Virus record (IMG/VR): IMGVR_UViG_3300011626_000001
Span: 1 to 42,973 of that record
Reading direction: 5' to 3' (one strand)
From: a virus
Lineage: Duplodnaviria; Heunggongvirae; Uroviricota; Caudoviricetes
DNA length: 42,973 nt
This document shows, piece by piece, positions 2,293 through 36,588 of this stretch. Under the pieces are notes generated by a model. It had not been told where the DNA came from. It saw only the letters and a list, made by a program, of their open reading frames with translations, and made no database searches. A program made the translations under genes and the position numbers. The first letter of the stretch is position 1. The number at the start of each line of letters is the position of its first letter.

Positions 2293-3378
2293 TCAGAAAT
2301 AGTAGCTGGCTTCAATGCAGGGAAGCTGGCAGGCCGCCTGAACAGCTTTCGGGTACTGATAAACAGCGATTTCCCTGCCTGTAGATTTGGCCCGGGCAGT
2401 GGAAATTGCGTTGCCGTTCATTTTCATGCCGGACTCAAGGCACTTCCTGAAGCTGTAAATGCTGTTGTTCCTTGAGTAATCGCCCCTCTGCACACCGAGA
2501 CTGCATAAAGGCACCATCGGCTGTGAAACGGAACCGGTCGGATTTACCCATGAAAGAACTTCGCCAGTCGAGCCGTCGAAATTTTCATAAGCGCCCATGT
2601 CATAATAAGCATCGGTCCACATGACGGGCGGGTATTTACTGGAGTAGGTTACCTGGTTGGCGGCATTCCTGATAACCATGCCGTAGCCCGAAACAGGGAG
2701 CGATGGCGAGAACCCACAAGAAACAATGACAATCTGAACATTGCTTACTGACCCGCCCTGCACCGAACCGTCAATACTGCCAAATGATGTATAAGTCCTT
2801 ATGGCATTGGTTGCCCTGTCAAGGTATAGCGGCGTATCGGTATTTGACCACCTGGCAAAAACAATATAATTCCCGAGGTTCAGCACGTCAGATGGAATTG
2901 CCCATTCGCCGCTGATATTTATTGTTGCCCTGTAGGTCACAAATCCCAGATATGAAACATCCCCTATTTCCATAAAGTTGGAGCCATTGGTGATTCGAAC
3001 TCCATACTGAACGGCGGGGTTAGCTGCATAAGACACAGAAAAAACGTCTGCATAACCGGCCTCAACTGCAGATGGTGTATTTCCATTGGGGCTAATATAT
3101 TTCGCGCTATAGATTAATGAGCTTCCGTCAAATGAAAGGCTTTTTATATAGGTCATCGGCGGCCCTGCGGGGTTTGTTCCCTCATAAACCCTCACCAGAT
3201 TACGCGGCACAATCAGCGCCCGGCTGCCCGCAGGCTGCTGCTTAAAACCGCCAGCAGAGCCTGCATTTGCCATCATTGATGCGCTGCCGAGATAAGATGC
3301 GTACCGCATTGAGGCATCGAGTATTATTTGCTTGCCGCCATCATCTGGCGTGATTCTCACTCCGTAAATATCCGCCAT
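2293..3378 (-). CDS. Putative tail fibre / receptor-binding protein (361 aa)
   Basis: Position directly after the J-like gene; beta-rich composition; function inferred from context only. Confidence 0.45.
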   Translation of the reverse strand: MADIYGVRITPDDGGKQIILDASMRYASYLGSASMMANAGSAGGFKQQPAGSRALIVPRNLVRVYEGTNPAGPPMTYIKSLSFDGSSLIYSAKYISPNGNTPSAVEAGYADVFSVSYAANPAVQYGVRITNGSNFMEIGDVSYLGFVTYRATINISGEWAIPSDVLNLGNYIVFARWSNTDTPLYLDRATNAIRTYTSFGSIDGSVQGGSVSNVQIVIVSCGFSPSLPVSGYGMVIRNAANQVTYSSKYPPVMWTDAYYDMGAYENFDGSTGEVLSWVNPTGSVSQPMVPLCSLGVQRGDYSRNNSIYSFRKCLESGMKMNGNAISTARAKSTGREIAVYQYPKAVQAACQLPCIEASYYF

Positions 3379-6050
3379 CAGTTAAGTTTCCCCGCTTTAA
3401 ACCTCTCCACGCCGTTGGCGTCATAAACAGCCAGCCCCGTTTCATTAAGTACGCTCCCTCCGGATGTACCTGAGCCTCCATATAGTTCAAAGGTGCCGTC
3501 GTTTCGCATAATCGTTCCCGATTTCCCGGCAACGTAATTTGCTGAGTACCACGACCCCACTTTAGCGAGCGTAATCGAGGCGTAGTTGATAAGCGCATCA
3601 TTGATAAACACCTGACCATTAACGGCAGTAAACGCCAGCTGGTAGCTCTGGTTAGTTGTGTTGTAAATCGCAAAGGTGTCTGCACTGAATAAGGCAAAAG
3701 ACTGCGTAGAGCCGCCATTCCCTTCAATGCCCAGCTGCATACCGGCCACATATTTCGTGCCATTCTTGTCAATCTGGACTTTTACGCCCCACTGAGCAGA
3801 CAATTTCCCGCTCAGATCAGCGTAAGCGCTGGATACCTGCTGTACTGATGAGGTGTTCTGGTCAGACTGCGCCTGAATCTGATCCATACGTTGTGCGTAG
3901 GCCGAATCATTCGTCGCGATGGTCTGCCTGACGCTGATGATATCAGCGCGGTTGCGCCCGCTAGCTTCAAACTGATGATCTACGGAAGCGTCCAGGTTAA
4001 GCGCGTTCTGGAGGATTGCATCAATACCCGTATCGATAGTGGAGCTAAGCCTGTCAAAAGCTTCTGACTTGCGTATTTGCGTGTCGATGTAATCAATCAG
4101 CTCACCAGTATCCGTGTTACACACTACGGGAACCTCAACAAACGCCGACGTTCCAAATGCGTTTATAGTCCGCACGTACCAGTAATAGGTTGGTCCAATC
4201 TTGAGCTCGTGTGCCGTCCAGTTGCTGCCAATACCTGCCCGGCTGGCATTGGCTTCCACGGTTGCCTGGGTGGTGTTTGGGAGCTTCGTTAAGCCTGACG
4301 TCCAGAAATCAAACTGCGTCGAAACATTCGTGATCTCATTGATGCGAGGAATGAGCGTTACAGCAAAATACCCCTGCTTTTGTTCAACGACAGAAGGCGG
4401 CGGCGGCGCTTCGATGCTGAATTCAAGATAGGCCTCCGGTGACTGGGCGCCCATCTGGTTTACAGCTATAACGTGTGCAGTATAAGTATCGCGCAGCAGG
4501 CCGGTCAGGCGAGTGAATGAACCAGGTACCTGAACGGAAAGAACCAGTTCCCCATCCTTGCGAATAAGAACCTGGTTATAAACATACTGACCAACGTTCT
4601 GCCATGAAAGCACGCCCTGAACTACCTGTCCGATTTCCTCAACGGTATATTTCAGGTTCTGAGGCTGAGCGACGCCTCCTGTAGGAAGTTGCGTAAATGG
4701 TGGGCGCTCAATAGGCTTGCCAATGGCATCACCCCACACCTCAGCAGTTTCCTGCTTCAGCGTCAGTTGCACACCATTCTGGACGCCAAATTTCCAGTCG
4801 GTTACCCGCATTTCAACGTCAGTAATACCGAGTGATGGAAAATTAACCTTCACGTACATGCCCGGTCGATATCGGTAGCCGCTCAGATTGAGAGTGACGT
4901 TCATCGTTCTGGAGATGCGTGTACGTTTAAGCTTAACGTCAGCCAGACGCTGCGCCTGAAATTCAGAGGTAACAAAGCGCAGTTTGAGGTCTTGTGAGAT
5001 TTCCACGCCGTCTTCTGCCACCCACTCAGAGACTGAGACGGTTGGGAAATCCACCTCGGAAAACCGCTGCATCGGGTCGATAAAGGTGCCTTTAATGGTA
5101 TTCACACGTTCTGATTGCGATACTTCAGGCATCATTTCTATGTCGCCAGCGAGCTGACTTTCGGTAATCACCTCTACAGCTGGCCCGTAATAGGCCCCGA
5201 CGAGGATGCCGTGTTTGCCAGCAATGTAGGTCGCCTCGCCTGCGCATGCTGAAAGCATGGCCTCCAGTATGCTTGCCTTATTCTCGCTCAGGTCAAATTC
5301 ACCATTAATGGTGTAACGCGGCTCCGTCTGATTACTGCTGCTTGTTACCCTTTCATCTGAAATATTTGCCGCTTCCTTGAACTGGTCCCAGTTAATGTCT
5401 GAGTCAGGCACTTTCAGGTAATTGCGGTAATAATCCAGGATGCACAGAGCGGCATTATTGCTGTAAACCGTGGCGCCGGTTCTGGGGTCATAAACCTTTT
5501 TGCCCATCTTCTCGACGGTGATGTTAGGGATACCCGCGGGGAATTTCTCCGCATCAAACTTCAGCGTCACCCTGAGCCAGCTGATGCCTTTACCAATCAT
5601 GTCCTCTTTCCATGACGGCGCGTTCTGCAGCAGGTAGGGGTCTGCAGTCTGTCGGTCGATGTGCACCTCGTAAGAGGCTTTATCGCCAAACGTAGAGATG
5701 TCATTGTCACCCAGATAAACTGCACCTACGCCAGTAATTGGATGCCCGGCAAGCGTAATTGCAAGGTGAAGAAGTTCGCCATCTGTCTGCTCTCCTGGTT
5801 GCTCCTCAGAAAAGAAAAGCGTCCCGGCAGAAAGGGATTTCCCGTAAATTACCGTCTTTGCACTGGCAGCGGCTCTCAGTACCTGCTTGCGTTCCTGAGT
5901 ATCCCTGTAACCGTTCATTGATGGTTTTTTTGTAAGGGCCTGAGAAGCAAGCTGGGCGGCTATGGTAATAACCATGGCAATGGCGTAAGCCTGATTCGCT
6001 ACAGCAATACCGCCCGCGATAGCGGCCACAACGGGAATAGCAGCAGGCAT
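3378..6050 (-). CDS. Host-specificity / central tail tip protein (J-like, 890 aa)
   Basis: Large protein directly after the minor tail proteins; N-terminal hydrophobic region and repeat-rich beta-type C-terminal region; operon position. Confidence 0.8.
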   Translation of the reverse strand: MPAAIPVVAAIAGGIAVANQAYAIAMVITIAAQLASQALTKKPSMNGYRDTQERKQVLRAAASAKTVIYGKSLSAGTLFFSEEQPGEQTDGELLHLAITLAGHPITGVGAVYLGDNDISTFGDKASYEVHIDRQTADPYLLQNAPSWKEDMIGKGISWLRVTLKFDAEKFPAGIPNITVEKMGKKVYDPRTGATVYSNNAALCILDYYRNYLKVPDSDINWDQFKEAANISDERVTSSSNQTEPRYTINGEFDLSENKASILEAMLSACAGEATYIAGKHGILVGAYYGPAVEVITESQLAGDIEMMPEVSQSERVNTIKGTFIDPMQRFSEVDFPTVSVSEWVAEDGVEISQDLKLRFVTSEFQAQRLADVKLKRTRISRTMNVTLNLSGYRYRPGMYVKVNFPSLGITDVEMRVTDWKFGVQNGVQLTLKQETAEVWGDAIGKPIERPPFTQLPTGGVAQPQNLKYTVEEIGQVVQGVLSWQNVGQYVYNQVLIRKDGELVLSVQVPGSFTRLTGLLRDTYTAHVIAVNQMGAQSPEAYLEFSIEAPPPPSVVEQKQGYFAVTLIPRINEITNVSTQFDFWTSGLTKLPNTTQATVEANASRAGIGSNWTAHELKIGPTYYWYVRTINAFGTSAFVEVPVVCNTDTGELIDYIDTQIRKSEAFDRLSSTIDTGIDAILQNALNLDASVDHQFEASGRNRADIISVRQTIATNDSAYAQRMDQIQAQSDQNTSSVQQVSSAYADLSGKLSAQWGVKVQIDKNGTKYVAGMQLGIEGNGGSTQSFALFSADTFAIYNTTNQSYQLAFTAVNGQVFINDALINYASITLAKVGSWYSANYVAGKSGTIMRNDGTFELYGGSGTSGGSVLNETGLAVYDANGVERFKAGKLN

Positions 6051-6448
6051 TATTTAACCCTCCAGGCACTCAATAAATTTCCACGCAAACTGACGAGCCC
6101 GTTATCACCGGGAACCCATACTGAACCACCGTAAAAAACGCCTGCACACCTGCGGCCAGCATTCTCTACTACGGCAACATCACCTCGCTGAATCAGTGAG
6201 GGATTAACTTCATCCAGGAACCGGGCAAGAACTCGCTCAAGCGATCCACCTCCGCGCAGTAACGCTTTTTTGGCTCCGGTTTCGCTGTCATATTTCCCAC
6301 GAAATTCAGCCGCAAAATCCTCACCGCACATTGCCTCAACGCAATCTGCGGCAAACAGGCAGCAGTCATGCTCACCCCATGAAAAAGGCCGCTTTTCGGC
6401 GGCCTTAATTACGGTTACGAGTCTTTTCTGCCAGTCAGGGTGTTTCAT
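6050..6448 (-). CDS. Minor tail / tail assembly protein (132 aa)
   Basis: Operon position between minor tail proteins and tip protein; start overlaps upstream stop. Confidence 0.45.
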   Translation of the reverse strand: MKHPDWQKRLVTVIKAAEKRPFSWGEHDCCLFAADCVEAMCGEDFAAEFRGKYDSETGAKKALLRGGGSLERVLARFLDEVNPSLIQRGDVAVVENAGRRCAGVFYGGSVWVPGDNGLVSLRGNLLSAWRVK

Positions 6449-6454
6449 AAAACC

Positions 6455-7039
6455 TCACGAATAGGTAAAGCCTGGCGCATCCTTCTTGCTGCCCCAGAAG
6501 ATAGAGCGTTCTGACATTTGCGCGACATACCGAAAAATTCTGTCGCCGGGCTGAACAGACTGGTGTGACTCATCAGTAAACCGATCCGGGAAAGGCCTCT
6601 GCCAGTCTTCGAAAATATTACTGACCGTATACTGGAGCGCGTTGGTTTCGCCTGCAGTAGCGCCGGTACTGGAAACCTTGCCCTGAAATATCAGATCAGC
6701 AATCTGAACCTGGCCGTTGTCGTCTATTGCCACCAGGAAAATCTCTGCGGTTCGGCCTACACAGCGCTCATTAAGCGTTTTAGCGAACAGGGACATATCC
6801 AGCCCTGACAGCGTCATCTTCAACTGTGAGGGGCTCGTGGTGTTGGTTTCATTCACGTCATCAATAGAGCCCATTCGCCCCATGCCGTAATAAACAAAAC
6901 CATCTATTACGATCGTTCCCGTGCCGGAATGCACATAGGCGGTGCCGGACTCAAACTGGATGTTTGCGGCCACAACAACAGTGACACGATCTCGTGATAA
7001 CCAGTCCACCATTGAGTCTGAAAACGGTGAATACATCAT
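6455..7039 (-). CDS. Minor tail protein (194 aa)
   Basis: Operon position after tape measure; coupled with neighbours. Confidence 0.5.
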   Translation of the reverse strand: MMYSPFSDSMVDWLSRDRVTVVVAANIQFESGTAYVHSGTGTIVIDGFVYYGMGRMGSIDDVNETNTTSPSQLKMTLSGLDMSLFAKTLNERCVGRTAEIFLVAIDDNGQVQIADLIFQGKVSSTGATAGETNALQYTVSNIFEDWQRPFPDRFTDESHQSVQPGDRIFRYVAQMSERSIFWGSKKDAPGFTYS

Positions 7040-32904: not shown

Positions 32905-33004
32905 ATAGCCTCCTTGACAAACTTTCTTGTATTTTAAATACAAATTACTTTGTTTGTCAATTACAGCTTTTCTTGTGAACATCTCTTTTTTGATGAGGTG
33001 TTAA
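32905..33004. promoter_or_regulatory. OR operator / PR-PRM divergent promoter region
   Basis: Inverted repeats TTGACAAAC...GTTTGTCAA and TTGTATTTtAAATACAA between cro and cI starts. Confidence 0.6.
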
Positions 33005-33646
33005 ATGACAATTGCGGCAAGGGTGCTTTCAAAAAGGACTGAGCTGGGTTTGACTCAGACAGAGCTAGCGGAAAAGGCCGGCACAACGCAGCAGGCGATT
33101 GTCCAGCTTGAGAGCGGTAAAACTAAAAGACCAAGATATCTGCCTGAGCTGGCTAAGGCGTTAAATTGCGACATCCAATGGCTTCTTGATGGATCAGGGG
33201 CAACCTTAGACAGCAATGTGTCTAACCCTAGGGACTACAAGCCGACTGCGCGCTACCCCGTTTTAAGCAAGGTTCAGGCTGGCGCATGGGATGAAGCCTG
33301 TGAACCCTATACGATTAAGGATGTCGATATGTGGCTTGAATCTGACGCACATACGCAAGGAGAGGCTTTCTGGTTGCAGGTGGAAGGCGATTCGATGACT
33401 GCCCCGATTGGCCTCAGTATTCCGGCAGGTACGTTCGTACTGTTCGACACCGGCCGTGAGGCGGTCAATGGAAGCCTGGTCGTGGCAAAGCTTACTGACG
33501 ACAATGAAGCCACATTCAAGAAGCTCATTATCGACGGCAGTCAAAAGTATCTTAAGGGCCTGAACCCTCAATGGCCGATGGTCCCGGTTAACGGGAATTG
33601 CAAGGTTCTTGGCGTGGCGATCGAGACGAAGATGAAGCTCGTTTAA
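33005..33646 (+). CDS. cI: CI-type prophage repressor (HTH + LexA-like S24 autopeptidase domain)
   Basis: N-terminal HTH; C-terminal GDSM serine motif and downstream Lys ([10 protein letters not shown]). Confidence 0.85.
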
Positions 33647-33690
33647 GGCTCAGTGGCCGGAAGAGACTTTCAGCTAATCAGGAGGATGGC

Positions 33691-33849
33691 ATGTCAGTTT
33701 TTGCGAAGATAGCGATTCCGATGTTCTGTATTGCGTTCGCGATGTTCTACCTGGCTCGCAAGAAGCGTGACAAAAACTACCTGATTCCTGGCTTTGTTCT
33801 GTTAGCTGCTGGAGTTGTGAATACGGTGATTGCGATTACTGCAGGTTAG
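33691..33849 (+). CDS. Small two-TM membrane protein (52 aa) cotranscribed with cI
   Basis: AGGAGG SD 7 nt before ATG; two hydrophobic helices separated by RKKRDKNY; flanked by a 15-bp direct repeat. Confidence 0.55.
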   Translation: MSVFAKIAIPMFCIAFAMFYLARKKRDKNYLIPGFVLLAAGVVNTVIAITAG

Positions 33850-33966
33850 TGGCCGGAAGAGAGGTTTGGGTAAAGATTTAGCGGTATTAGCCGAAAAGAC
33901 ATATAGCACGAAGCCGACGCAAGAACGGATCGTTTAATCTTTTCAGGGAAATATCAGAGATTAGCT

Positions 33967-34962
33967 ATGGAACAACATGACGTTTTTGTGTACACAGGTG
34001 ATATCCACCGTGATGGTTATCTCGATCTTACTAATGCCATAAAAAAACGCAAAAAAGCTCAAGGACTCAGCACTGAGGTTACTTTTTGTGTCGCCACTTA
34101 TGGCGGAGATCCAAATGCAGGCTATCGTATAGGAAGAGCGCTTCAACATAACTATGAGAAAGTGAATCTTTTAGTAGTGGGCCCCTGTAAGAGTGCCGGG
34201 ACTTTGATAGCGATTGCAGCTGATAAGCTTATCATTGGAGACATGGGTGAGCTTGGCCCCCTTGATATACAGCTTAAAAAAAATGACGAAATTGGCGAGA
34301 TGAGTTCAGGCCTGGTCATAATGACGGCCTTAGATGCGTTAAAAGATCGCTCTATTTCGACGTTCAATTCTCATCTGGTTAAGATAAGATACGAAAACCA
34401 GATAAGTACGAAGATGTCAGCTGACATTGCTGCGAAGTTAACTGAGGCGTTAGTTGCTCCCATGGCTGCTCAGATAGATCCAATTAAACTTGGAGAGCAT
34501 CAACGAGCTATGAGCATTGCCATAACCTATGGGCAGCGACTCAGTGACAAATCTAAGTGTTTGAAGGATGGAGCTTTATTTAAATTAATTGCCTCTTATC
34601 CTTCACATGGTTTTGTGATAGATCGCAAAGAGGCTCGCGAACTTTTTCACCATGTTGAAAGTCCAACTGGTTACGCTGAAGCACTTTACGAGATTTTTTA
34701 TCAAAAAATTCACGAGGGTGAAATTCAACCTTACGGTAAACCGAAGGTGCTCGATTTCACTATCGATCCTGAAACAACTGAGAATAATGGAGATGCCAAT
34801 GCACAATCACCCGGAGATGGAGGTACTGAACAAGATGATTCAGGACCAAATCCAGGAGAGTCAAGATCTGGCAAAGCGAGCAGAGCAAAATCTAAACGAT
34901 CTGAAGCGTCAACTGGAGCCCTACCAGTTCAGCAGCCCAATGACATACCGCCTCCAGAGTGA
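33967..34962 (+). CDS. ClpP/S49-fold (SDH-type) serine peptidase-like protein with charged low-complexity C-terminal tail (331 aa)
   Basis: Segment GPCKSAGTLIAIAADKLIIGDMGELGPLDIQ resembles the Ser-containing core of ClpP/SppA-fold peptidases; no signal peptide; AT-rich gene. Confidence 0.55.
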   Translation: MEQHDVFVYTGDIHRDGYLDLTNAIKKRKKAQGLSTEVTFCVATYGGDPNAGYRIGRALQHNYEKVNLLVVGPCKSAGTLIAIAADKLIIGDMGELGPLDIQLKKNDEIGEMSSGLVIMTALDALKDRSISTFNSHLVKIRYENQISTKMSADIAAKLTEALVAPMAAQIDPIKLGEHQRAMSIAITYGQRLSDKSKCLKDGALFKLIASYPSHGFVIDRKEARELFHHVESPTGYAEALYEIFYQKIHEGEIQPYGKPKVLDFTIDPETTENNGDANAQSPGDGGTEQDDSGPNPGESRSGKASRAKSKRSEASTGALPVQQPNDIPPPE

Positions 34963-34984
34963 TCTCTCACCATTTTAAGTAAAG

Positions 34985-35008
34985 CCCGGCCACCGCGCCG
35001 GGTTTTTT
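34985..35008 (+). terminator. Rho-independent terminator (CCCGGC-CACCGC-GCCGGG + T6) ending the cI cargo operon
   Basis: Hairpin and T-run read directly, 23 nt after the peptidase-like stop. Confidence 0.6.
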
Positions 35009-35144
35009 ATACCCGCCACACCAATAGCCCGCCATTGAGCTGGCTTTTTCATGCTGCTCTAAAGTTATCAGTTATGCTGCCGTTAACCTCTTTGCTCTGG
35101 AAAACAGTAGTACCAATAACGACAATATGAAATCAAGCCGGTTG

Positions 35145-35168
35145 GCCCGCTATGCGCGGGCTTTTTTT
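35145..35168 (+). terminator. Terminator hairpin GCCCGC-TATGC-GCGGGC + T7
   Basis: Read directly; member of a repeated hairpin family. Confidence 0.5.
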
Positions 35169-35312
35169 CTTTCAATACATAAACTAACGTTATCCTGACG
35201 AGTAAAATTACTACGCTATATTTCACAGCAACGTAGCGGCAGTAGCCTATGCTTTGAAAGCACATTATTTGCTGTGTGCGATGGCTTTCCCCATTGGAAT
35301 TTGTGTCTTCTT

Positions 35313-35336
35313 GCCCGCCATAGAGCGGGCTTTTTT
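35313..35336 (+). terminator. Terminator hairpin GCCCGC-CATAGA-GCGGGC + T6
   Basis: Read directly; member of a repeated hairpin family. Confidence 0.5.
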
Positions 35337-35500
35337 AAGCCAACTCCCGCTGCCCAGAACAATCCTAACTTCATGACTTGTAGGACCATTCCCACATCGC
35401 AAGAACTCACACACTCCTAACCTTTAATGGCTACACGCATACAGGATGTTGCGCGTTAGCTGTACGAGATTTGCAGGTTAACCCTGTGCTGAATCACTTT

Positions 35501-35524
35501 GCCCGCCACTGAGCGGGCTTTTTT
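35501..35524 (+). terminator. Terminator hairpin GCCCGC-CACTGA-GCGGGC + T6
   Basis: Read directly; member of a repeated hairpin family. Confidence 0.5.
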
Positions 35525-35559
35525 GTGCCTGCAGATCCCACTTCGTAAAAATAAATCAC

Positions 35560-35650
35560 CTTTGAAAACAAAGCTTTTTGTATTTCTCGCCTTTAATTAC
35601 AATATTTATTGTTTACAGTATACAAACTTTATTGTAATTTTACTCCATCA
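35560..35650 (+). promoter_or_regulatory. Candidate OL/PL operator-promoter region
   Basis: AT-rich; contains TTGTAT / ATACAA half-site-like motifs shared with OR, and TTACAAT...ATTGTAA inverted repeats; lies upstream of nutL and N. Confidence 0.45.
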
Positions 35651-35728: not shown

Positions 35729-35919
35729 CCAAAGAGCAATTGGCTTTGGGGTGTAATGAGGTGTGCTCAAGCGAGCTGCAGCGCCGGTCGACGCAAAGAC
35801 CAGTGAATCGACTGTGTCACAGCAACTGGTGACCAATACAAAAACAGAGCGGCTGGAAATAAGCGAGATAGCGACTCGGTGCCTCATTACACCACCTAAG
35901 CCAATTACCGGAGGTAAAT

Positions 35920-36168
35920 ATGTTTGCAGCTACCAACAGCGTCAGCCGTCGCTACCTCAAGCGTGGCGAACTGATCGCAAAACGCCGTGCAGAAGCGGCA
36001 GAAGGTAAAGCCCGCGTTGATGTCAGTGCTGAGCGAGTTTCACGCGCTGTATCTGCACCGAGCCTTCGCGAAAAGCACGAAGATGGCGCCATGTGCCTGC
36101 CCGCCATAGCGATTTACAGCGCCGGGCATCGCAAGGTTCGCAAAGACGCGACGCACATCGTTAAATAA
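35920..36168 (+). CDS. N: Antitermination protein N (P22 gp24-like, 82 aa)
   Basis: N-terminal arginine-rich motif; C-terminal LPAIAIYSAGHRKVRK resembles the P22 gene 24 C-terminus as I recall it; GGAGG SD; downstream of nutL. Confidence 0.7.
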   Translation: MFAATNSVSRRYLKRGELIAKRRAEAAEGKARVDVSAERVSRAVSAPSLREKHEDGAMCLPAIAIYSAGHRKVRKDATHIVK

Positions 36169-36261
36169 ACGAAGTGCTGAAAAGGTTATTAACTAATTCT
36201 GTATTTGCATAATCAGCCATTTTTTCTAGGCTTAAAAAGTAACTTAAGCCCAGGAGGAAAT

Positions 36262-36588
36262 ATGTTAGAGCAGTACAAAAAATGCATCGAAGCGTGTTAC
36301 CTGTGTGCAGCTGCTTGCGATAACTGTGCGGCATCGTGCCTTGAAGAAGAGAACCTGGAAATGATGCGCCAGTGCATCAAAATGGATATGCAATGCGCAA
36401 ACATTTGCCGACTCGCTGCTCAGTTTATGGCTTTGAAAAGTGAGTCAGCCAACGAAATTTGTCAGCTGTGCGCAGATGTTTGCCAGAAGTGCGGTGATGA
36501 ATGTGGTCAGCATAACCATGACCACTGTCAGGAATGTTCCAAAGCCTGTCATCACTGTGCAGAGCAGTGCCGCAAGATGGCCGCTTGA
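36262..36588 (+). CDS. Cysteine-rich four-helix-bundle-type metal-binding protein (about 18 Cys in 108 aa)
   Basis: Repeated CxxxC spacing throughout; AGGAGG SD; own AT-rich upstream region and terminator. Confidence 0.55.
   Translation: MLEQYKKCIEACYLCAAACDNCAASCLEEENLEMMRQCIKMDMQCANICRLAAQFMALKSESANEICQLCADVCQKCGDECGQHNHDHCQECSKACHHCAEQCRKMAA

Follow-up and report, generated by a model that had tools for sequence, protein, structure and literature searches.

Two unrelated cargo cassettes behind the cI repressor of a lambdoid prophage, one of them a lone ClpP-fold protease gene that may serve in phage exclusion

Genes of the cI-N interval such as rexAB, BstA and the like have repeatedly proved to be phage-exclusion systems. 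Here we describe this interval in the virus record IMGVR_UViG_3300011626_000001, a lambdoid siphovirus prophage whose whole stretch of 42,973 nucleotides (nt) is hereafter called the window, and to whose positions all coordinates refer unless another locus is named. Behind the cI-type repressor gene and on the same strand lie a gene for a 52-amino-acid (aa) two-helix membrane peptide with a strong Shine-Dalgarno sequence and a gene for a 331-aa protease-like protein, as the initial annotation had reported, apart from small corrections of the coordinates. That annotation regarded the two genes as one module, possibly for exclusion or abortive infection. We propose instead, with about an even chance of being right, that they are two unrelated cargo cassettes and that the protease gene is a lone one, most likely devoted to prophage exclusion or defence. 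The features of the locus are the following.

32917-32965: OR-type operator repeats (repeat family D4, copies at 32917 and 32940)
32960-32931, minus strand: PR-like promoter TTGACA-18-TAAAAT reading into cro, within the OR-type operator region
33005-33646, plus strand: cI-type repressor of 213 aa with HTH_3 and Peptidase_S24 domains (open reading frame call and Pfam profiles)
33651-33677, plus strand: first of two relics of a lambda-type cI 3' end, coinciding with the left copy of the direct repeat AGTGGCCGGAAGAGA (repeat D6)
33691-33849, plus strand: gene of the 52-aa two-helix membrane peptide, with an AGGAGG ribosome-binding site; independent cassette
33850-33873, plus strand: second relic of this type, marking the protease cassette on its 5' side
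33874-33966, plus strand: conserved 5' leader of the protease gene (GCCGA...CACGAA, a small hairpin, then CAGGGAAA)
33913-33929, plus strand: leader hairpin with a 7-nt loop, C-R-N-N-A-G-A
33967-34962, plus strand: gene of the 331-aa soluble serine protease-like protein of ClpP/crotonase fold, SDH-type clade (profiles, model and conservation)
34983-35013: G+C-rich intrinsic terminator hairpin CCCGGCCACCGCGCCGGG followed by T6, closing the cassette
35595-35647: OL-type operator region at the far edge of the immunity region, made of the third operator repeat copy (35622-35647) and an adjacent palindrome

Immunity region and cassette boundaries

The operator-like repeat ACAAACTTT.TTGTA is present in three copies, two of which (32917 and 32940) are beside the divergent cro promoter, the third being at 35622. 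The repressor is recognized by the Pfam profiles HTH_3 (2.7e-13) and Peptidase_S24 (5.7e-24), and its gene shares ~90% DNA identity with the cI of the Pantoea vagans prophage L181, whose sequence just 5' of its N gene is homologous to the OL-type region of the window. Because the operator repeats flank the peptide and protease genes, and because the E. coli lambda-like prophage L097 presents the order cII, cro, cI, protease, N, cIII, kil, gam, bet, exo, with the protease gene in the place of lambda rexAB, both cargo genes would lie between OR and OL, in the rexAB slot. The initial annotation had assigned them to this slot, and the operators on both sides, the L097 gene order and the repressor linkage seen in many prophages all agree with it. 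Its description of an AT-rich locus closed by a strong terminator is also borne out, with a G+C content of 44.5% over the span of the finding and 43.5% in the protease open reading frame (ORF) against 52.7% in the whole window, and with a hairpin and T-run at 34983-35013.

The direct repeat that flanks the peptide gene gives the clue to the history of this array. Its copies translate to QWPEETFS and WPEERFG, each followed by a stop codon, and since they both encode and align with the C-terminus of lambda-type cI, they can be read as relics of a lambda-type cI 3' end. Indeed, in L017, which carries a 95%-identical relative of the protease, a lambda-like cI ends at the position homologous to the relic and is followed, after 93 nt, by the protease gene; the C-terminus of that cI is the lambda-type one, found in 93 phage records at an identity of at least 99%. 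By blastn, the homology between the window and L017 extends from 33848 to 35010, and that with L181 stops at 33871 and resumes at 35519. The same relic recurs between small-peptide genes in Pantoea ananatis L003 (~7700-7720 and 7884-7905), in L181 (~4160-4182) and in the Pantoea prophage L182 (3970-3990 and 4157-4183). Such a pattern suggests that cargo was stacked and swapped through recombination at the conserved cI 3' end. The C-terminus of the window cI differs from the relic type, and the present cI would therefore have joined the cargo array secondarily. Altogether, the comparison of these loci, to which may be added the lone copies found among housekeeping genes in many phyla, makes it well supported that the protease gene is a mobile and autonomous cassette with a single cargo gene, tied in its history to the cI 3' end.

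The 52-aa peptide starts with an ATG at 33691, 6 nt downstream of the AGGAGG, and its two hydrophobic helices are joined by a KKRDK loop. The gene is real and conserved, given the 33 protein clusters of 51-53 aa that match it with 71-96% identity and in which Pantoea is the only named genus. It forms a separate cassette for a small inner-membrane protein. P. vagans L181 exhibits cI, the 52-aa peptide, a second, different peptide with two transmembrane (TM) helices and N, with no protease gene, and in L182 the peptide behind cI is followed by a 135-aa membrane protein, again with no protease. A block on phage DNA entry may be imagined as its role, but this is speculative.

In lambdoid prophages of Pantoea and Serratia, tiny and mutually unrelated membrane-peptide genes (29-52 aa, some of them YoaK-like) were also seen to form arrays directly behind cI, as in L181 (4001-4159 and 4188-4340), L003 (7608-7697 and 7725-7883), L007 and L008 (7732-7854) and L035 (4522-4620). 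Such tiny peptides may represent a little-studied class of small lysogen-expressed proteins.

The protease gene is preceded by a leader common to a subset of relatives that share 52-100% protein identity. In these, the hairpin has 4-6 base pairs and CAGGGAAA stands ~20 nt before the start codon; the leader was found in L017, L018, L003, L019, L004, L007, L037, L039 and L043. Over 10 distinct sequences, 94% of the cells of the hairpin alignment are paired, all five of the five pairs show compensatory changes and none of 500 shuffles reaches the observed score, the hairpin of the window itself having just three canonical pairs. Rfam returned only sub-threshold, terminator-like matches on the locus and none on the leader. 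The hairpin bears no more than a loose resemblance to nut/boxB. A promoter within the leader was discarded, since neither inspection by eye nor a scan yielded a convincing -10 element.

A consensus scan of the plus strand from cI to the protease ORF found no terminator-like and no promoter-like site, which makes co-transcription of cI and the protease gene plausible; the protease gene is probably expressed with cI in lysogens. The alternative cargo of L182 likewise ends in a terminator similar to the one that closes the protease cassette.

Four more terminator-like hairpins (GCCCGC-N6-GCGGGC and a T-run, plus strand) are present at 35025-35055, 35142-35167, 35311-35341 and 35499-35529. They are 117-188 nt apart and occupy the gap between the cassette terminator and OL/PL, and two of them gave weak Trp-leader-like Rfam matches. 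These hairpins could be remnants of lost cargo cassettes, or insulators placed before PL.

The protease-like protein and its family

The 331-aa protein harbors the motif GPCKSAGTLIAIAADKLIIGDMGELGPLDIQ, followed by a helical domain (residues ~115-270) and a disordered charged tail (~275-331). An AlphaFold2 model built with 67 diverse relatives reached a mean predicted local distance difference test score (pLDDT) of 86, being confident to about residue 270 and disordered in the tail, and Foldseek agreed with it, the fold resembling those of ClpP, NfeD and SppA. The tail is of low complexity in all relatives, being acidic and then often basic. No signal peptide, TM helix or other hydrophobic segment was found in the protein.

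The candidate nucleophile is the serine of CKS76AGT, which aligns with the Ser97 motif of NfeD and with the AASMG motif of ClpP. Among 265 relatives, down to ~37% identity, Ser76 is kept in 264 (99.6%) and its neighbor Lys75 in 259, and Asp100, Gln102, Ser114 and His214 are each present in all 265. No lysine other than Lys75 reaches 95% conservation in this set, which rules out a Ser-Lys dyad of the SppA/NfeD type. A triad of the ClpP type, with a histidine ~25 residues past the serine, is similarly ruled out, as residues 100-102 read D-I-Q and His214 is the sole invariant histidine. With both arrangements excluded by conservation, the order Ser-Asp-His remains, and Ser76, Asp100 and His214 are thus the candidate catalytic triad, their proximity in space being assumed. 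This "SDH-type" triad takes the family name SDH to stand for Ser-Asp-His, which is our own interpretation; the order of the invariant residues fits the name. That the enzyme is under strong purifying selection at these three positions is well supported by the alignment. The serine and its partner, which the initial annotation had left to be located, can therefore be named to different degrees: Ser76 is aligned with the nucleophile of ClpP and NfeD, and Asp100 and His214 are partner candidates drawn from conservation.

The comparison with known peptidases shows how far this protein has departed from them. Its identity with ClpP (family S14) is 12-16%, and no ATPase partner gene is found nearby. 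Asp100 stands where His122 would be expected in ClpP (24 instead of 25 residues after the serine) and the invariant histidine comes ~138 residues after the serine, a correspondence deduced from motif spacing, since the hhalign alignment with ClpP covers residues 3-81 and the equivalence of the ClpP His and Asp to Asp100 and His214 is one of spacing alone. With SppA and the NfeD protein 1510-N (S49) it shares the fold and the position of the serine, but it has no dyad lysine, no membrane anchor and no signal peptide. It therefore folds like ClpP, NfeD and SppA yet lacks the catalytic hallmarks of S14 as well as those of S49. The ClpP/SppA-like core seen in the initial annotation is consequently retained as regards the ClpP fold and the serine position, whereas the S49/SppA label appears doubtful, there being no SppA-type lysine.

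Profile searches place the protein at the border of described families. The Pfam family SDH_protease (PF01972) aligned residues 39-105 with 29.9 bits for a cut-off of 31.3, CLP_protease stayed below threshold with 18.6 bits for 20.2, and the NCBIfam model Clp_like_SDH (NF047768) gave 37 bits for a cut-off of 250; Peptidase_S49 had no Pfam match in the protein. PHROG 21683, of unknown function, matched at 1e-158. Most relatives carry a precomputed PF01972 match, and PGAP names those of E. coli SDH family Clp-fold serine proteinase. With PF01972 and NF047768 the protein shares a ClpP-like fold, a GG...S-A-G-T nucleophile motif and Ser-Asp-His invariant in that order, whereas ~165 residues of helical domain and disordered tail fall outside these models. 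It fits best among the SDH-type Clp-fold proteinases, as a divergent subfamily, PHROG 21683. A word-indexed search counted 3,533 proteins in the family, and an exhaustive one 3,156 clusters at 50% identity with E up to 0.001, of which 922 with E up to 1e-30. No publication on this protease family was found in a literature search.

Distribution and neighbours

The protease gene is found directly 3' of a prophage repressor and on the same strand in Yersinia (with a gap of 98 nt), Serratia, Klebsiella, where the repressor is a Rac-type CI, and Bartonella. IMG/VR contains 161 relatives; upstream neighbours were taken from the best 80 of these and from the earlier loci, giving 61 non-redundant neighbours, mostly from viral contigs, of which 31 have a Peptidase_S24 domain and 25 an HTH_3 domain. 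The gene also occupies other cargo sites: prophage ends, beside integrase and DinI genes; a place after the integrase gene in a P2-like Burkholderia phage; an insert on the opposite strand, beside the XRE/ImmA genes of a Klebsiella phage; and a position adjoining the tail-fibre genes in Pantoea ananatis. It is rare in E. coli, with a family member in 49 of 5,426 complete genomes. Megablast of the locus against phages and E. coli genomes gave no match.

A second E. coli version of the protease was encountered in L183 and L184 (5432-6993), and also in L100 and L038. A DinI-like gene always precedes it, and it stands at the end of a prophage integrated next to prfC, with a partial S24 peptidase gene and an invertase gene behind it.

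The 83 immediate neighbours taken from the genome set include a few with PADLOC matches, namely BstA (twice), a DRT reverse transcriptase, a type II restriction enzyme, MADS proteins and capP/capH-like regulators. In Gilliamella (L105), cro is followed on the other strand by cI, two small ORFs, the protease gene and BstA (7e-117). This array spans 2296-6732 in Gilliamella sp. Pas-s25; cI is of the S24 type, the two ORFs encode 81 and 67 aa, the latter being YidD-like by eye, and the protease is of the SDH type.

Further features were noticed past the cassette, in the early-left region of the window. A 27-nt motif occurs three times past the presumed PL (35770-35796, 35928-35954 and 36108-36134), with a spacing of 158-180 nt. 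An ORF of 82 aa at 35920-36168 has an arginine-rich N-terminus, RRYLKRGELIAKRRAEAAEGKAR, resembling N-type antiterminators, and the related phage L181 carries a P22-like boxB, GCGCTGACAAAGCGC, at ~4903-4917, 5' of its N gene. The early-left operon further encodes a cysteine-rich DUF326 protein of 127 aa with three repeats (36205-36588, plus strand), an unusual cargo at this place, for which PADLOC had no match.

Possible functions

The protease cassette is made of a lambda-type cI 3'-end relic, a leader of ~95 nt with a hairpin, the ORF and an intrinsic terminator. Read-through from the cI promoters would transcribe the gene in lysogens and end before OL/PL. The protease would then exclude other phages by cleaving a phage or a host protein, without any ATPase partner. 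Such a defence role is plausible, and we favor it because of the rexAB position and the other cargo hotspots, the rare and patchy spread, the AT-richness relative to the surroundings and the array shared with BstA, to which the few further neighbours with defence-model matches add a hint. A fuller picture can be drawn only tentatively and seems to us rather unlikely in all its parts: a widespread, single-gene, lysogen-expressed anti-phage system, in which an ATPase-free ClpP-fold protease with a rearranged Ser-Asp-His triad cleaves a phage protein (e.g., an assembly or scaffold protein) or a host protein, the leader hairpin sets its expression and recombination at the cI 3' end ensures its spread.

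Several observations weigh against a defence role. Neither the peptide nor the protease matches any family of PADLOC-DB v2.0.0 at E up to 1, in line with the initial annotation, which had recognized no named defence system; the alternative cargo of the same slot, namely the 135-aa ORF of L182, the peptide B of Pantoea and the YoaK-like peptide, gave no PADLOC match either. The consensus scan did not detect a PRM promoter. In a collection of 100,044 genomes, one per species, 328 relatives from many phyla were found; in this more distant set an S24 repressor is the upstream neighbour in only 7 of 68 cases and most neighbours are housekeeping genes, as is also seen around a lone copy in Neisseria. 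The family thus extends beyond phages, and a role in the cell itself is conceivable. Finally, the association of the protease with defence genes comes from few loci.

Known systems offer partial likenesses. Lambda rexAB occupies the same slot in the same orientation as the protease gene, with presumed expression in lysogens. The window protein, a protease encoded by a single gene, is related to RexA, RexB and BstA neither in sequence nor in fold. The Lit protease of prophage e14, a zinc metalloprotease triggered by the Gol peptide and directed against EF-Tu, is an instance of protease-based abortive infection. Like Lit, the window protein is a single, prophage-encoded protease that could abort infection, whereas Lit differs as a zinc metalloprotease with a known trigger and target. 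Closer by name is FS_HP_SDH_sah, reportedly described by Fillol-Salom and colleagues in 2022 as a validated two-gene anti-phage system of phage-inducible chromosomal islands, the second protein of which is said to have an SDH_sah domain; we take SDH_sah to be the older name of the Pfam domain weakly seen in the window protease. That system needs its partner "HP", whereas the protease here has no conserved partner and the E. coli copies inspected are in prophages. The likeness is one of domain name, and a possible membership in that system is the main caveat on novelty. A context of phage-inducible chromosomal islands was considered for the relatives and rejected, since L038 and L100 are prophage ends with integrase, DinI and protease genes; in L063, checked for the same context, the remaining genes had no Pfam match. 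The Tai tail-assembly-inhibition system (PMC11364771) was also considered and dropped: the portion of that article consulted gives no tie to the protease family, and sequences were not compared. As for BstA, Owen et al. (2021; PMC8585504) report it as cargo downstream of prophage repressors.

Among the other explanations, the one that survives best is that of a lysogenic-conversion or housekeeping-type protease, whose benefit to the host (peptide turnover or stress tolerance) would be unrelated to phages. We consider it unlikely though worth keeping in mind: the lone chromosomal genes beside housekeeping genes over many phyla point in that direction, as do the cellular substrates of SppA and NfeD, which share the fold, whereas the very sparse and patchy distribution, the repeated capture in prophage cargo slots and the adjacency to BstA at one locus do not. 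Less probable again is an accessory of lysogeny or induction that acts on cI cleavage fragments, cII, Cro or an antirepressor. Such a role would explain the repeated placement directly behind S24/HTH repressors, from Enterobacterales to Bartonella, and the SOS-linked neighbours of some loci (DinI, ImmA/XRE, SRAP), but one protease version lies behind different and unrelated repressor alleles (L027 and L032), many copies have no repressor nearby and others are located where prophages end, a long way from the immunity region.

That the peptide and the protease form one system, for example a membrane sensor or pore with a protease effector in the manner of RexA/RexB, now looks improbable. In its favor, the two genes adjoin each other on one strand, not separated by a terminator, and several loci have some small hydrophobic ORF between repressor and protease, such as a YoaK-like one in Serratia and, in P. 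ananatis, a distinct 52-aa, 2-TM peptide. However, these interposed ORFs are mutually unrelated across loci and most relatives have no membrane ORF at this place, while each of the two genes of the window is bounded by its own cI-end relic. The co-occurrence that a single module would imply fails in both directions, L017 having the protease without the peptide, and L181 and L182 the peptide without the protease.

We see very little chance that the protein lacks catalysis and serves as a ClpP-fold scaffold or decoy, disturbing the assembly of incoming phages without proteolysis. It shows weak matches to ClpP-related head-maturation proteases (5.9e-8 in NCBIfam and 4.6e-6 with PHROG 1684), and its helical domain and charged tail may loosely recall protease-scaffold fusions, but these matches cover the generic ClpP core only and the invariance of Ser76, Asp100 and His214 argues for catalysis. 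Phage exclusion or defence is rated above this explanation, as it is above the lysogeny accessory and the host-benefit protease. Lastly, that the protein is the prohead protease of the phage itself, as the initial annotation already denied, or a signal-peptide peptidase, as the name "SppA protein" of relatives in NCBI and some phage records would have it, is hardly credible, since the gene belongs to the immunity region and is separated by 12-18 kb from the head genes, which are on the opposite strand (on the minus strand, 15.8-22.1 kb holds the portal, Mu-F-like and capsid genes, which with the tail genes cover ~7-22 kb), since the upstream neighbour is not a portal or capsid gene in any of ~130 surveyed relatives, and since a signal peptide, a TM segment and a conserved SppA-type lysine are all missing. 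Both this explanation and the two-gene one are contradicted by the comparative sequence data.

The preferred explanation, a lone protease cassette for phage exclusion or defence, concerns a large family. At least 3,156 clusters at 50% identity make up a family that occupies the cI-N slot in prophages of E. coli, Klebsiella, Yersinia, Serratia, Pantoea, Gilliamella and Bartonella, and that has no recorded function. The independence of peptide and protease keeps a false "two-gene system" out of catalogues, and the cI-end relics provide a concrete picture of how cargo is swapped between immunity regions. Being a single gene, the protease cassette is a cheaply testable candidate for a protease-based prophage defence gene and, if it truly is one, it would add an ATPase-independent ClpP-fold protease to the known types of effectors.

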